32,000 nt of DNA, from contig NC_009483.1 of NCBI RefSeq assembly GCF_000016745.1, positions 4,530,001 through 4,562,000 of the forward strand, in the 5' to 3' direction. Of this stretch, positions 5,374 through 31,650 are shown piece after piece; position 1 is the stretch's first letter, and every line of letters begins with the position of its first letter. Source of the DNA: Geotalea uraniireducens Rf4. GTDB taxonomy: Bacteria > Desulfobacterota > Desulfuromonadia > Geobacterales > Geobacteraceae. The position numbers were made by a program, and so were the translations under genes. Below the pieces are notes generated by a model. The model did not search any database. It worked only from the letters and a program-made list of their open reading frames with translations, and had not been told where the DNA came from.

Positions 5374-5468
5374 AAAAAAAGAGGCCAAGGATTATTAATC
5401 CTTGGCCTCCAGTTTTCTGGTCAGCCTTGTCCGAGCAATACGGATTGGTATTTTATTTAAACCCATTG
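5374..5468 (-). promoter_or_regulatory. Leader copy c1: conserved hairpin GGCUGACCAGAAAACUGGAGGC (5405-5426) overlapping an intrinsic terminator (stem 5381-5409, U7 at 5374-5380)
   Basis: Perfect 10-bp terminator GAGGCCAAGG/CCUUGGCCUC plus U7. The hairpin and the terminator share GGAGGCC. Paralogous to 10325-10423. Confidence 0.6.
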
Positions 5469-6666: not shown

Positions 6667-8166
6667 CTAAAATCCGTACTGGAACTGGGCAAGGAATTCG
6701 TTGTTTTTCTGTGCTTTGGGAATCTGCCCGGACACGATGTTATAGTTAAGCTGCAGCTTGGTCGTTGGGGCAAAGAACCAGTTGAAGCCGATGGTATAGA
6801 TGTCTTTACGGTCATCTTCCGCATCCAGATCGGGATCGAACCGGTCGAACCTCAGGAATGGCTGAATGGTTTGGGGGTACCAGTCACCATAGCGGGTCTG
6901 CTCCTTGTATGACTTCTGAAACTGTTCACCGAAGTTGTAGAACAAGGTGAAGGTAATGCCTTCACTCTTGACACTTCTAAAAGTAGATGGGGTGGTGATC
7001 GTGCCGTTCTTGATCTTCTCCTTGGAGAGCGACGGGTCCTCACCCCGGACATATTCCAGCGTAAATCCGACCGGCGTGTTTACGTAGGACAGGTCGCCCC
7101 CATACCTGTTCTTGTCGCCTTTTTGGGACAACGTGGTGTCTGTCGTATTGGTCGTTACGGAAATCGTGGCCGGCGGAGGTGTTGCGTTCGGCACGTTTAC
7201 CGTTGTGGTCGAGGTACGTGTGGCCGTTGCCGTTTTTACCCCCCAGTAACCGGAAACCCCCAGGGTCAGCCCCCGCAGGAAATCGTTATAGTCAACCGGC
7301 GCATTGAAGGCAACCCTCGCGAAGACGTCCTTGTTGTCGTTGTCGTCAGCCTTGTTCGGTCCGCTCCCGTTTACCACCCCAATAGAGTAGGCTATTGCCG
7401 GTACGCGGTACTTGCTGAAGCCATAGTCGTTATGGGGAAACAGGTCTCCGCTGAGTACAAGCCCGATGTCGCGTTCGTCGAGTGACAGCGCCTTGGTGAA
7501 CTGGGCCCCGTTGATCGTCGGTTTGTATTCCTCCGACGCCGTCGCCTCCAGGCCGAAAATCTTCTTCTGCTGCCCGACATAGACATAGAGGTATGGCTTG
7601 GTGACATCATTGGAGGGAAGGATGGAATAGCTGAGATAGGCGTCCTGGATCCTGAGCGTCAGGTCCGACCCGCCGGCATTGGTGCCGAACACATAATCGA
7701 CGTTTTTCCCGTCCTCGTAATCCTTTCTCAGATTCCCGGAGAATTTGAGGTTTAGCGAGGGAGTGCCGAATCCTTCCTTTACCGCCGGGTCATCCGACAC
7801 GACAAACTTAGTGGTGGCGGAGCCGCCGAATTTGAGCGACCTCGACGTGGTTGCGGTTTTCTGGTCATAATTGGTCTGGAACTGGTCGCGTAGCGTCTCC
7901 AGTTCCGTTCTTAACCCATTGAGGTCTCCCTGAGTTACCGGCTCATCATCGGGATCTTTCTCAGTAGCCGCACTGGCTGTCGACGGATCACTCGTTTCCA
8001 CTCCGGATGCCTGATCACTGCTTTTCAATGCATCATCTTTCTTCTCTTCACTCACTGCCTGTTCATCGGTATTTTCGGGTACGGCGGCGGATTCGGCGCT
8101 CCATGAAGCGGGCGCCAGCAACACAAGGCCAAGCAACAGCAAACTCGCTACTTTCACAACTTTCAT
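6667..8166 (-). CDS. Outer-membrane beta-barrel porin, OprO/OprP-like (anion/phosphate-selective porin family)
   Basis: Start chosen at MKVVKVASLLLLGLVLLAPASWSA (signal peptide, GGGGGAAG RBS). An acidic linker and a coiled coil 'LNGLRTELETLRDQFQ' follow. The body has alternating beta-strand character and a C-terminal '...FLAQFQYGF' with terminal Phe. Confidence 0.65.
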   Translation of the reverse strand: MKVVKVASLLLLGLVLLAPASWSAESAAVPENTDEQAVSEEKKDDALKSSDQASGVETSDPSTASAATEKDPDDEPVTQGDLNGLRTELETLRDQFQTNYDQKTATTSRSLKFGGSATTKFVVSDDPAVKEGFGTPSLNLKFSGNLRKDYEDGKNVDYVFGTNAGGSDLTLRIQDAYLSYSILPSNDVTKPYLYVYVGQQKKIFGLEATASEEYKPTINGAQFTKALSLDERDIGLVLSGDLFPHNDYGFSKYRVPAIAYSIGVVNGSGPNKADDNDNKDVFARVAFNAPVDYNDFLRGLTLGVSGYWGVKTATATRTSTTTVNVPNATPPPATISVTTNTTDTTLSQKGDKNRYGGDLSYVNTPVGFTLEYVRGEDPSLSKEKIKNGTITTPSTFRSVKSEGITFTLFYNFGEQFQKSYKEQTRYGDWYPQTIQPFLRFDRFDPDLDAEDDRKDIYTIGFNWFFAPTTKLQLNYNIVSGQIPKAQKNNEFLAQFQYGF

Positions 8167-8394: not shown

Positions 8395-10324
8395 ATCGGG
8401 TAGGAGGCGGGATTGCTCCCGCCGTCCTCCCACACCACCGTGCGTACGGTTCCGTACACGGCGGTTCATGAAGTACGTTGAAGTCGGTGAAGCTGGTCTA
8501 TGAGTGATACCAGCCCCAGTTTGTCGAAGTAGAATTTCGGAACAGCTTTGTTCATATGCGCGGCCCCTGCATTCCACCAGGGGCCGCGGCCGTTTGTGGC
8601 CGACCGCCATGCAGTTGCCTCCGATAATCCCCGCCGCATCAGTTTCTTTGCTCGCGTCTTGGGGCGCTTCCACTGCTTCCAGAGAATGCGACGCAGTTTA
8701 CGTCTCAGCCATCCGTCCAGTTCCTCGAAGATGCCTTTTACTTCCGCGTACCGAAAGTAGTTTAACCAACCCCTAAGTTTCGGGGTTGTCTCTTCAACGG
8801 TGGTTTGGATGTTCTGACCCCTTCCCCGCCTAAAGATCGTCTTGAGGTTGGCCTTGAGCCTGGCAGCCGCTTTCTTGGCCACGGTAAGCCGCGGTTTGCG
8901 GTGCCGGGTCATGCTGTAACTCAGAAACGACCTTTTCCACGGACGGTCAACCGCGCTTTTGCCCTGGTTGACCGTGAGCTTGAGCCGCTCGGACAGGTAG
9001 CCGGTAATTGAGGCCATGACACGCTCGCCGCTTCTCCTCGTTGCAACATAGATATTTGCGTCGTCGGCATAGCGGCAGAACTTATGGCCCCTTCTTTCCA
9101 GTTTCTTGTCCAGTTCGTCGAGGAGGATGTTGGACAGCAGCGGCGAGAGAGGCCCGCCTTGCGGCGTGCCTTCCAACCGGGGTGACGTCACTCCTCCTTC
9201 AAGTATCCCTGCCTTAAGGTAGCTGTCGATAAGGGACAGCACCAGACGGTCTCCAACCTTGCGTTTCACCAGCGACATAAGGGTGTCGTGGTGGACTCGG
9301 TCGAAAAATTTCTCAAGGTCAATGTCAACCACCCACCTAAGGCCGCTCTCTACATACTTCCGAGCTGCCTTGATCGCTTGATGGGCGCTCCGTCCAGGGC
9401 GAAACCCGTGGGAACTTATGGAGAAACCAGGGTCGAACAGCGGGCTCAAAACTTGATGCACCGCCTGCTGAATGAGTCGGTCAAGGACGGTGGGAATTCC
9501 CAGCATCCGTGTGCCGCCTCCCGGTTTGGGAATTTCTACTTTCCGCACCGGTTGCGGGTGATACGTTCCCGTCAGCAGTTCTTCTCTGATGCGCGGCCAT
9601 TCCTCCTGTAGGTAGCCCTTCAGGGCCGTTACCGGCATGTTATCGACGCCGGGCGCTCCCTTGTTGCGCATTACCCGTGAGTATGCCGCCATCATGTTGC
9701 CGCGACTGACGATCTTCTCCATCAGTCCCGTTGCCGCTTCCGGCCAGTGAGCTGCTTTCCTTCCCGTGACGTTTGCCGCACCTCTCCCTTTCTCTCGCGG
9801 TTTCCAACCGCTACCCTCCGGGCTGGCGCCGGGTATCCCAACCCGGCCTTCTGCTGCTCCTGTCGTCATCGAAACTCAAGGCTCCTGTCCGCTTACTTCA
9901 AGTTCGGCCCTTTGTCGGTCGGTTATTCCGACTCGTATGGCCTCTGCTGACTTCTGCCAACCCATCCCGGCACCTCTCGATGCCGGTAGCACAAGGCAGG
10001 TTGACAGACCTCCCAGGGTAATGCGCGTGACCTTCATCCCATATACCCGCCGCATCTACTTCCACATCTTTCTGGATGGTTATCGGGCTTTGAATCTGTT
10101 TGCCTTCTCGCCCAGATGTGGCTGCCTCATATGCGATTCCTGTTCGTCGGGCCAGGACTTTGCCTACAGCTTCCTTCAGATTCCGGGTCGCCCCGGACAC
10201 CCTTGCTGTTCAGCTATCGGTTCCCACCATCAGGGTCCGAAGAGGACTTTCACCTCCAAGTCACCAATCAGGCACCATACCCAATTGGATGGCGCTTACG
10301 CGCCACGCGCCATGCCTGGCGCAC
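8395..10324 (-). mobile_element. Group II intron, bacterial class C-like (about 1.93 kb); 3' end accurate to a few nt
   Basis: The 5' end reads GUGCGCC at 10324. Domain V (8435-8464) is CCGCCGUGUACG-GAAC-CGUACGCACGGUGG with a CGC triad and a 2-nt bulge. Domain VI (8398-8431) has a GCAA loop and a bulged A at 8401. An internal RT/maturase ORF is present. The insertion lies 9 nt after a terminator stem. Confidence 0.85.
8466..9722 (-). CDS. Group II intron-encoded reverse transcriptase/maturase (no endonuclease domain)
   Basis: RT motifs '...GVDNMPV...', 'TPQGGPLSPLLSNILL' and 'FCRYADDANIYV', followed by a maturase X region and an ending '...FYFDKLGLVSL'. Start chosen at MEKIVSRGN (ATG 9722), giving about 418 aa. 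Confidence 0.9.
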   Translation of the reverse strand: MEKIVSRGNMMAAYSRVMRNKGAPGVDNMPVTALKGYLQEEWPRIREELLTGTYHPQPVRKVEIPKPGGGTRMLGIPTVLDRLIQQAVHQVLSPLFDPGFSISSHGFRPGRSAHQAIKAARKYVESGLRWVVDIDLEKFFDRVHHDTLMSLVKRKVGDRLVLSLIDSYLKAGILEGGVTSPRLEGTPQGGPLSPLLSNILLDELDKKLERRGHKFCRYADDANIYVATRRSGERVMASITGYLSERLKLTVNQGKSAVDRPWKRSFLSYSMTRHRKPRLTVAKKAAARLKANLKTIFRRGRGQNIQTTVEETTPKLRGWLNYFRYAEVKGIFEELDGWLRRKLRRILWKQWKRPKTRAKKLMRRGLSEATAWRSATNGRGPWWNAGAAHMNKAVPKFYFDKLGLVSLIDQLHRLQRTS

Positions 10325-10423
10325 AAACAAAAAGAGGCTAAGGAAATTTCCTTAGCCTCCAGTTGTCTGGTCAGCCGCCGTTCGTTAAGAACCGGTTACT
10401 TAAACTTATTTACCTATCGTTTT
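10325..10423 (-). promoter_or_regulatory. Leader copy c2: conserved hairpin GGCUGACCAGACAACUGGAGGC (10355-10376) overlapping an intrinsic terminator (stem 10334-10359, U-run 10325-10333)
   Basis: The terminator GAGGCUAAGG/CCUUAGCCUC differs from c1 by one compensatory pair. The group II intron starts immediately downstream at 10324. Confidence 0.6.
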
Positions 10424-10432
10424 AATAGACTA
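10411..10432 (-). promoter_or_regulatory. Operator-like motif site B (CTATTAAAACGATAG)
   Basis: Fits CTAY-N7-ATAG. Located just downstream of the -10 element. Confidence 0.35.
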
Positions 10433-10458
10433 ATATCAGGTATAAAAAATGCTGTCAA
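10430..10458 (-). promoter_or_regulatory. Sigma70-like promoter TTGACA-N17-TATTAG
   Basis: Consensus -35 hexamer, 17-nt spacer and the same -10 hexamer as at 5475-5480. It lies 36 nt downstream of the nifH-like stop. Confidence 0.5.
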
Positions 10459-14564: not shown

Positions 14565-14634
14565 GTAGGGGCGTACCCGAGTGTGCGCCCTTTCCGTTGT
14601 GGATAACAGGGCGGACACATAGGTCCGCCCCTGT
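14565..14634. repeat. Paired REP-like palindromic hairpins (GTAGGGGCGTACCCGAGTGTGCGCCC ... GGGCGGACACATAGGTCCGCCCCTGT)
   Basis: Two 8-bp GC-rich hairpins in inverted orientation between sbp and cysT. The same architecture occurs at 31572-31650. Confidence 0.75.
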
Positions 14635-26459: not shown

Positions 26460-26579
26460 CCAATTTCAAATCAAGGATGAAATCAAGGCGGCGAGGAGTG
26501 AGGCGACGAAGGCGTACAACTGCGTACGTTGAGGAGCCGAAGACGAGCCAACGAAGATAGCGCCTTGATTTGAAATTGG
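26460..26579. repeat. 120-nt element bounded by perfect 17-bp terminal inverted repeats (ccaatttcaaatcaagg / ccttgatttgaaattgg); MITE-like or a structured 5' UTR
   Basis: The inverted repeats were read directly. The internal 46-mer recurs at 1706-1751. The element ends 3 nt before the hsp20 Shine-Dalgarno AAGGAGG. Confidence 0.7.
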
Positions 26580-31571: not shown

Positions 31572-31650
31572 GTAGGGGCGCACCCATGTGTGCGCCCTGG
31601 TTTTCAACCATCGGATTCAGAACCGGGCAGACACATGGGTCTGCCCCTAC
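31572..31650. repeat. Paired REP-like palindromic hairpins (GTAGGGGCGCACCCATGTGTGCGCCC ... GGGCAGACACATGGGTCTGCCCCTAC)
   Basis: Same architecture as 14565-14634. It lies between dapF and the HIT gene. Confidence 0.75.

Follow-up and report, generated by a model that had tools for sequence, protein, structure and literature searches.

The regulatory genes hutP, pyrR, glcT and bglG adjoin, just upstream, the terminators they control. The PyrR-binding hairpins of the pyr attenuators (RF00515) and the HutP, GlcT and BglG-type systems share a small hairpin with conserved loop and bulge bases next to an intrinsic terminator, and they have several copies per locus and a wide taxonomic spread. We found an element of similar build in a 32,000-nucleotide (nt) stretch of the Geotalea uraniireducens Rf4 genome (contig NC_009483.1, positions 4,530,001 to 4,562,000; hereafter the window). 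This element, c2, occupies positions 10458 to 10325 of the window, between a nifH-like gene and a porin gene; it is read on the minus strand, as are the genes and RNA elements discussed with it. Its family likewise has a candidate regulator gene, yezD, just upstream in part of the loci. There is no sequence or Rfam match between c2 and the PyrR system, and PyrR binding promotes termination, whereas here the hairpin overlaps the terminator and binding should prevent termination. YezD is unrelated to the PyrR, HutP, GlcT and BglG proteins, and we can only hypothesise that it binds RNA.

By general knowledge, the HMP-PP/thiS, preQ1-I and guanidine-II riboswitches are similar in that a tiny conserved element shares nucleotides with the terminator stem and is sometimes found in tandem. 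They differ in sequence, structure and gene set and have no Rfam match for c2. S-box (SAM-I) leaders, cysteine T-boxes and the sul1 motif are also leader structures that control sulfur, cysteine and methionine genes, but their size and structure are unrelated to those of c2 and they have no Rfam 15 match in c2 or in 20 other loci of its family. To our knowledge, little is known of RNA-level control in sulfate and sulfonate assimilation beyond the S-box and T-box leaders of Firmicutes, and we know of no described RNA-acting sensor of sulfur limitation. The sul1 motif, an orphan linked to sulfate transporters, was considered as the identity of the hairpin and rejected as a different RNA (PMC5737381, Weinberg et al. 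2017). The c2 hairpin has no Rfam 15 family: the best c2 match at E <= 10 is DUF3800-I, with 25 bits against a threshold of 44, and it is driven by the terminator. Rfam 15 gives nothing at E <= 5 in the 14-kb region and nothing in the 20 other family loci. The motif is not described in the searchable full-text literature (subscription-only papers lie outside it), and we call the hairpin family an undescribed regulatory RNA provisionally, with respect to Rfam 15 and that literature.

We read c2 as the first of two tandem conditional terminators that gate transcription into a porin-SsuA sulfur-scavenging operon, with a probability of roughly three in four. The simplest reading is that c2 would terminate transcription by default and let it continue when sulfur is limiting. 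We also lean, on balance, towards the wider view that the CUGA...AGG hairpin with its overlapping terminator is an undescribed RNA class controlling sulfur acquisition across nine or more phyla, either as a target of YezD/OscA or as a tiny riboswitch, and that c2 is the first class C intron site behind a switchable terminator.

The c2 copy of the conserved 27-nt hairpin, GCUGACCAGACAACUGGAGGC, is at 10378 to 10352 and scores 38.5 bits (E = 6e-11) with R1, our covariance model of the core. It consists of a flanking stem (P1), the pairs C1:G19 and U2.G18, an internal loop of GA opposite A, the stem P2 (CCAG:CUGG), and the loop ACAA. This layout replaced a model with a 4x3 internal loop, because the variants U1:A19 and C2:G18 and the minimum-free-energy folds support the GA/A loop. 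A kink-turn (K-turn) or box C/D-like reading of CUGA/AGG was rejected by eye, as the tandem G.A geometry does not fit. The intrinsic terminator GGAGGCTAAGG-AAAT-..CCTTAGCCTCT (10360 to 10333; terminator scan and folds) has 12 pairs, 6 of them G-C, a loop of 4 and a stem contribution of about -20 kcal/mol. Its stem is followed by TTTTGTTT, which ends at 10325; the U-tract UUUUGUUU covers 10332 to 10325, with the insertion point of an intron at its 3′ end. A G+C-rich stem-loop followed by a U-run is the form of an intrinsic (Rho-independent) terminator.

The two structures compete for the same nucleotides, as the 5′ base of the terminator is made of G16-A17-G18-G19 and the 3′ strand of the hairpin stem P1. 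Isolated 27-mers fold as the hairpin at -9.7 (c2), -9.2 (c3) and -12.1 (c4) kcal/mol, which for c2 is the minimum-free-energy fold. In the full leaders, the terminator state is favored over the enforced hairpin by about 14 kcal/mol (c2) and about 8 kcal/mol (c4). The string GGCTGACCAGACAACTGGAGGC at 10376 to 10355 has one further match in the window, with 1 mismatch, at 5426 to 5405 (versus 0 expected by chance). The covariance model finds exactly three copies of the core in the window (c4, 41.8 bits; c2, 38.5 bits; c3, 34.4 bits), and the next match has 10 bits. The initial annotation had numbered c2 as a second copy, which implies a c1; the model finds none in the window.

An upstream hairpin predicted by RNAfold, P0 (CCGGUUC-UUAAC-GAACGG, 10395 to 10378), had been counted as part of a conserved leader module. 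All parts of that module are present, with every base at the minus-strand positions first reported within 10325 to 10458, but the conserved unit is the 27-nt hairpin overlapping the terminator and not the whole module. Hairpins at the P0 position occur in the same place with different sequence in Geobacter-type copies, so P0 is conserved in shape only and mainly among Geobacter relatives; it is absent where the promoter is about 10 nt before the core.

We collected the family by scanning one genome per species for an exact pattern (CTGACCRGANAACYGGAGG), which gave at least 120 matches. A hairpin and T-run directly follow the motif in 76 of the 120 matches listed, and 10 more listed matches are right after yezD and before sbp, without a terminator. 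The remaining listed matches look like chance matches inside genes; from the pattern information and the database size we estimate about 70 chance matches in the whole collection. By record labels, the genuine listed matches cover at least nine phyla, with members in Bacillota, Geobacter relatives, Actinomycetota, Chloroflexota, Spirochaetota, Methylomirabilota, Verrucomicrobiota, Armatimonadota, Planctomycetota and Pseudomonadota.

The family consensus, from the bottom up, has the flanking stem P1, C1:G19, U2.G18, an internal loop of G3 A4 opposite A17, P2 (C5:G16, C6:G15, R7:Y14, G8:C13), and a loop A-N-A-A that sometimes has five bases. The pair flanking the 19-mer is outside the exact search pattern and hence unconstrained, and 104 of the 108 distinct sequences form it (GC 66, AU 23, GU 12, UG 2, CG 1). 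Across these 108 sequences 86% of cells are paired and 7 pairs have double changes, with 49, 4 and 2 double changes at P2 pairs. None of 500 shuffles reached the observed pairing score, and the slid-partner controls collapse. Fuzzy matching and the covariance model recovered the stem variants UCAG/CUGA, CUAG/CUAG and CUGG/CCAG, along with U1:A19 and C2:G18, and reversed-sequence controls in the fuzzy matching gave no match. In 70 of 73 cases the first nucleotide of the terminator stem is within the motif, with A17 as the commonest position. The terminator base thus shares its nucleotides with the internal-loop A and the lower stem, and the hairpin and terminator folds are therefore mutually exclusive.

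The first downstream open reading frames (ORFs) among the matches listed encode CysK/PALP (7), NMT1/SsuA (4), Cys_Met_Meta_PP (3; O-acetylhomoserine sulfhydrylase-type enzymes), NifH-like proteins (3), ATP sulfurylase (2), 3′-phosphoadenosine 5′-phosphosulfate (PAPS) reductase (2), sulfite reductase (2), MsrA (2) and porin (2). The genes downstream of the family are all wanted under sulfur limitation. The NifH-like gene is among the commonest downstream of the motif, at ten of the loci listed. At four Bacillus cereus group loci, the hairpin and terminator precede InhA-type M6 metalloprotease genes, which suggests that this protease is part of the sulfur-limitation response in that group.

Intron-free relatives place c2 in the leader of the porin operon. 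A 222-kb metagenome contig (Ga0209639_1000033; L130), found by a metagenome scan with the c2 terminator as query, is identical to the window at 1063 of 1076 upstream and 1074 of 1095 downstream positions (98-99%). It has the c2 U-tract, then 60 nt, then the c3 hairpin. Two tandem copies precede the porin gene in five further intron-free loci (L126/L127, L128, L129 and L131), whose porins have 75-77% (L126/L127 and L128) and 68% (L129) identity to that of the window. L126, L128 and L129 have a further copy between the binding-protein gene and the methyltransferase, the counterpart of c4. In a more distant Geobacter (L027, 52%), one copy is found, together with a promoter and an operator. We conclude that c2 and c3 are an ancestral tandem pair before the porin-SsuA operon and that c2 is the first element of the porin leader. 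The proposed comparison with intron-free loci thus has a clear outcome: c2 does abut the porin leader there.

The c3 hairpin (CUGACCGGAUAACCGGAGG, 8334 to 8308, 34.4 bits) has orthologous copies in L126, L128, L130 and L131. Its expression platform, ACUUGGUC + UUUUUGUUU (8299 to 8283), forms a weak terminator; the 3′ arm of this terminator can also pair with the 5′ portion of the hairpin, and the string CUUGGUCUU of this platform is kept in L126 and L128. A promoter scan found no promoter-like site between the intron 3′ end and c3, and the same result led us to reject an outward promoter for c3 and the porin within that end of the intron. A third, degenerate hairpin, CCUGCCGG-UCGA-CCGGAAGC (8211 to 8192), is about 25 nt before the porin ribosome-binding site and has no terminator; it has counterparts in L126, L128, L129 and L131, and R1 gives it no score. 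The intron-free tandems and the lack of a promoter-like site before c3 support the first annotation's choice of a regulatory leader of the porin operon over an operon terminator alone. Its suggestion that both could hold at once also agrees with the sequence: the c2 hairpin should also end the nifH-like transcripts, because there is no other terminator between the nifH-like stop and the c2 hairpin.

We predict that c2 has a promoter of its own. The -35 hexamer TTGACA (10458 to 10453) begins 36 nt past the nifH-like stop, as first annotated, and is identical in L130. The extended -10, TGaTATTAG (10438 to 10430), has TATTAG at 10435 to 10430 after a 17-nt spacer and TG at -15/-14; both elements were read directly. 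The -10 hexamer is the same in L130, and both single-nucleotide polymorphisms (SNPs) of the element are within the 17-nt spacer; one of them changes the TG of the extended -10 to GG, so that the TG extension is not kept. At c4, TTGACA-N17 recurs in the same geometry, and the promoter scanner gives it a score of 11/12. The hexamers and their 17-nt spacing make a sigma-70-type promoter probable.

A candidate Rrf2/CymR-type operator, CTATTAAAACGATAG (10428 to 10414), overlies the predicted start site (about 10423). The pattern CTAYN6GATAG has 4 matches in the window, all on the minus strand (5485-5471, 10428-10414, 11446-11432 and 15712-15698), against 0.11 expected, a statistic that is partly circular as the pattern was derived from these four sites themselves. 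Each site is 1 nt past a -10-like hexamer, all four are at promoters of sulfur genes, and the gene for an Rrf2 regulator heads the cluster. We presume from this arrangement that the Rrf2/CymR-like regulator binds the four operators. Related operator-like sites are found at L126, L027 and two other family loci. The regions upstream of sbp and the nifH-like gene share the operator and promoter part only, not the hairpin core. The initial annotation had overlooked the operator over the predicted start site and the link to yezD.

Put together, these parts suggest the following mechanism. Transcription would start about 7 nt past the TG-extended -10, within the 15-bp Rrf2/CymR-like operator, which would be the first layer of control. 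The nascent leader would fold the 27-nt hairpin first, with its lower stem (P1, C1:G19, U2.G18), GA/A loop, CCAG:CUGG stem and ACAA loop. A17-G18-G19-C-U, made up of the internal-loop A and the 3′ strand of the lower stem, would then become the bottom of the much stronger terminator stem. By default, the 3′ arm of the terminator would displace the lower stem and polymerase would stop in the U-tract at 10332 to 10325; the same stop would also end the nifH-like transcripts. Under sulfur limitation, a factor may keep the lower stem and internal loop closed, which would block the terminator base and allow read-through to c3 and the porin (an ON switch). We infer the direction of this switch, its signal and its effector, and we slightly favor a YezD/OscA-family protein as the factor over a small metabolite such as O-acetylserine.

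Several observations weigh against this account. The promoter, operator and termination of c2 are predictions from sequence, and the promoter scanner does not list the c2 promoter; its rule is a T at position 6 of the -10, where c2 has G. L128 has a c2-like copy without a recognizable promoter, which is probably read from the upstream yezD gene. The ON direction is deduced from the direct overlap of hairpin and terminator. The two c3 folds differ little (-15.0 versus -14.4 kcal/mol), so c3 has no strong terminator, and the tandem attenuators may consist of a strong copy and a second one that is leaky or degenerate. A terminator is missing from about 10 family members, which are 25-50 nt before the sbp start, and their regulatory logic may differ from that of the terminator type. 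Stem conservation in the family is inflated by the exact-pattern collection. The AlphaFold2 model of YezD (a helix and a beta-hairpin; predicted local distance difference test score, pLDDT, 68) has no Foldseek match in the PDB below E = 2.5.

The nature of the effector can be approached through the genes next to the hairpin. In 36 of the 120 listed loci, yezD precedes the motif on the same strand with a stop-to-motif distance of -4 to 134 nt, the gene order seen for hutP, pyrR, glcT and bglG, and yezD is downstream in the same operon in 6 more; the gap is at most 30 nt in 21 of the 36, which leaves no room for a promoter. One locus (L020) has the order Rrf2 (divergent), yezD, motif-terminator, ssuABC, and the nearest NCBIfam family to YezD is the ‘sulfur starvation response protein OscA’, although at 29.7 bits this match is well below the curated cutoff of 85. 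On these grounds we tentatively propose protein-dependent antitermination, where YezD/OscA (DUF2292) would bind the hairpin under sulfur starvation, stabilize it and prevent the terminator. The motif also resembles protein-recognized hairpins in being simple and in having nearly invariant bases in its loop, internal loop and stem, and a bound protein would more readily account for the terminator-less copies before sbp. RNA binding by YezD is nevertheless conjecture, given the low-confidence model and its null structure search; there is no sequence relative of YezD in the PDB, and many copies, c2, c3 and c4 included, do not adjoin yezD. A new small riboswitch is possible but less probable. Here the GA/A loop and lower stem would bind a metabolite reporting sulfur status and so block the terminator; O-acetylserine and N-acetylserine are examples of inducers that would suit an ON switch. 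The core hardly varies across the at least nine phyla, it is placed in the 5′ leaders of one coherent pathway and in tandem copies as in several riboswitch classes, and the terminator overlaps it in those 70 of 73 cases; in Actinomycetes the promoters are about 10 nt upstream, so only the hairpin is available. A 27-nt hairpin with a 2x1 internal loop is, however, at the lower limit for a selective natural aptamer, the stems look more conserved than in typical riboswitches (in a biased collection), and strong linkage to an upstream yezD is not predicted. Attenuation by a leader peptide through yezD translation was set aside, as YezD has no Cys/Met-rich stretch and the stop-to-motif distance runs from -4 to 134 nt.

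Two simpler accounts dispense with an effector, and we consider both improbable. If the hairpin and U-tract were a mere constitutive terminator of the nifH-like and cys transcripts, with c2, c3 and c4 as a repeated cassette that senses nothing, its place as the only terminator after the nifH-like stop and the preference of class C introns for ordinary terminators would both be expected. The terminator stem, however, differs in sequence in every genome, whereas the overlapping hairpin keeps its sequence across phyla and covaries; the associated genes are downstream and sulfur-related, c2 has its own predicted promoter and operator, and the intron-free loci put c2 directly in the porin leader, with another gene upstream of the L128 copy. 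It is even harder to see c2 as a stand-alone gene for a trans-acting small RNA of about 100 nt with incidental read-through. Promoter, operator and terminator do bound a unit of that length, and terminated riboswitch leaders accumulate in cells, but family members almost always precede same-strand sulfur genes at 20-140 nt, many are inside operons without a promoter of their own, and c3 has none. Conditional termination into the porin-SsuA operon is the reading that we retain.

The neighborhood of yezD has some further features. At four loci the UGA within the motif CUGA is the yezD stop codon, and a terminating ribosome there would cover the 5′ half of the hairpin. Ten listed loci have the terminator-less motif between yezD and sbp; at one of them (L004) the motif GGAGG is itself positioned as a Shine-Dalgarno sequence.

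Between c2 and c3 the window contains a group II intron of 1,930 nt (10324 to 8395), with 5′ GUGCG at 10324. Rfam matches from 10197 to 8395 (RF02001, 144 bits; RF01998, 62 bits; RF00029, 46 bits) cover domains D1-D6. The intron encodes a reverse transcriptase (RT)-maturase (9869 to 8466) with Pfam RVT_1 and GIIM domains and no endonuclease domain. Its best PDB relatives are the GsI-IIC RT (1.5e-138, full length) and the Eubacterium rectale IIC protein (7UIM, 9e-106), and it is far from LtrA/IIA (8e-44) and a IIB protein (1e-32) in the same search. The RT-maturase is thus nearest to IIC proteins and lacks the endonuclease domain, and the intron is therefore of class C (IIC). Such introns are placed downstream of terminator motifs (PMC1702495, PMC4748821), and this one begins at the base right after the U-tract of the 12-pair terminator.

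In short-read assemblies of this organism, the contigs break off 20 nt inside the intron, and the intron is recovered as a separate collapsed-repeat contig (window 10328 to 8395). This points to several intron copies per genome and fixes the 3′ end at 8395. The collapsed-repeat contig and the empty-site allele together fix the ends exactly at 10324 and 8395, which confirms that a group II intron separates c2 from c3 and the porin. L130 is without the intron; its empty site is ...CUUUUUGUUU|UUCAGG... as RNA and CTTTTTGTTT|TTCAGG as DNA, with longer readings CTTTTTGTTT|TTCAGGTAG and ...CCUCUUUUUGUUU|UUCAGGUAGUCGG... across the junction. Given this near-identical empty allele, the insertion is precise, recent and strain-specific.

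The intron appears to be a mobile class C element that homed to the DNA behind the c2 terminator and is a passenger there. It had first been treated as part of the regulatory design, which does not fit with the homing of class C introns behind intrinsic terminators or with its absence from a near-identical strain. The statement that read-through transcripts must splice it does not hold either: splicing is not needed to restore a reading frame, because the intron is in the untranslated 5′ leader and interrupts no ORF, and the porin is encoded regardless. Under the proposed mechanism, the intron would affect regulation in two ways only: it would be transcribed from outside only on read-through, and the leader would be 1.9 kb longer until spliced. 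The behavior of the intron itself is textbook class C. It shares with B.h.I1, O.i.I1 and GsI-IIC the 5′ GUGCG, domains D1-D6, an RT-maturase without endonuclease domain, insertion directly behind a hairpin and T-run, and multiple copies in the genome (PMC1702495). It differs from them in that its target would be a conditional terminator of a 5′ leader and not a plain end-of-operon terminator, and in that it is between two attenuator copies in an untranslated operon leader.

A possible trace of another insertion is present at c4. The string TGCGCCAGGCAAATTCCGCTTGGCG, right after the c4 U-tract (5372 to 5348), aligns with nt 2-25 of the class C intron; its first 11 nt are identical to the intron and are placed with respect to the terminator just as the intron is at c2. 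The string is absent from the orthologous loci L126, L128 and L129, and it may be what is left of an earlier intron that inserted behind the c4 terminator.

The minus-strand order of the locus is Rrf2 regulator, sbp-cysTWA, yezD, nifH-like gene, c2, intron, c3, porin, SsuA-type binding protein, c4, methyltransferase, two ATP-binding cassette (ABC) permeases and an ABC ATPase. The Rrf2-family (CymR-like) regulator (16192 to 15731; Pfam Rrf2, 1.7e-36) has CymR as its best NCBIfam equivalog match (1.9e-26), under the cutoff of that family. The yezD/oscA-family gene (11673 to 11506; Pfam DUF2292, 3.9e-19; NCBIfam OscA-related) encodes the candidate trans-acting partner of the hairpin. The nifH-like ORF (11360 to 10494; Pfam Fer4_NifH, 3.6e-65) has the stop codon TAA at 10496-10494. 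A predicted promoter of its own, with an operator, precedes it, and its NifH-like ATPase is an orphan, without NifD/K partners nearby in the window.

The porin (8166 to 6667; Pfam Porin_O_P family; ATG at 8166) is the first gene controlled and is 100% identical to the 499-amino-acid porin of Geotalea uraniireducens. It is followed by the SsuA-family (NMT1) periplasmic binding protein (6636 to 5512; Pfam NMT1; NCBIfam SsuA_fam, 1.6e-45). The c4 module (5515 to 5373) is upstream of the methyltransferase and ssuC/ssuB-like genes; it has the promoter TTGACA-N17-TATTAT, an operator at 5485-5471, the hairpin at 5428-5402, and a terminator at 5410-5380 followed by U7.

Two kinds of repeats were also seen in the window. 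A 55-nt repeat (95% identical) at 1706-1760 and 26524-26578 adjoins a DDE transposase ORF (262-1647) and is probably an insertion-sequence end; Geobacter sp. OR-1 (L069) has a similar string immediately before the motif. A palindromic repeat of 27 nt, GTAGGGGCGYACCC..GTGTGCGCCCT, at 14565-14591 and 31572-31598, with one copy between sbp and cysT, looks like a repetitive extragenic palindromic (REP)-type element.

The main value of the finding is the hairpin family behind c2, a short element (27 nt plus terminator) with a clear gene set and a specific candidate partner, YezD/OscA. Unexplained leader termination in sulfur operons has reportedly been noted in older work, and the family may explain it. 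If the proposed role of YezD/OscA is true, this ‘sulfur starvation’ protein would gain its first molecular function, as an antiterminator; in its riboswitch form, the element would be among the smallest natural riboswitches and would sense a metabolite of sulfur status. The near-identical filled and empty alleles illustrate, in a clear natural case, how a class C intron homes to a terminator, and class C introns can land within a regulated leader and not just at the end of an operon. If the reading of c2 is true, it would be the first case of a class C intron behind a switchable terminator, and the transcription of this retroelement would be gated by a nutrient signal of its host.

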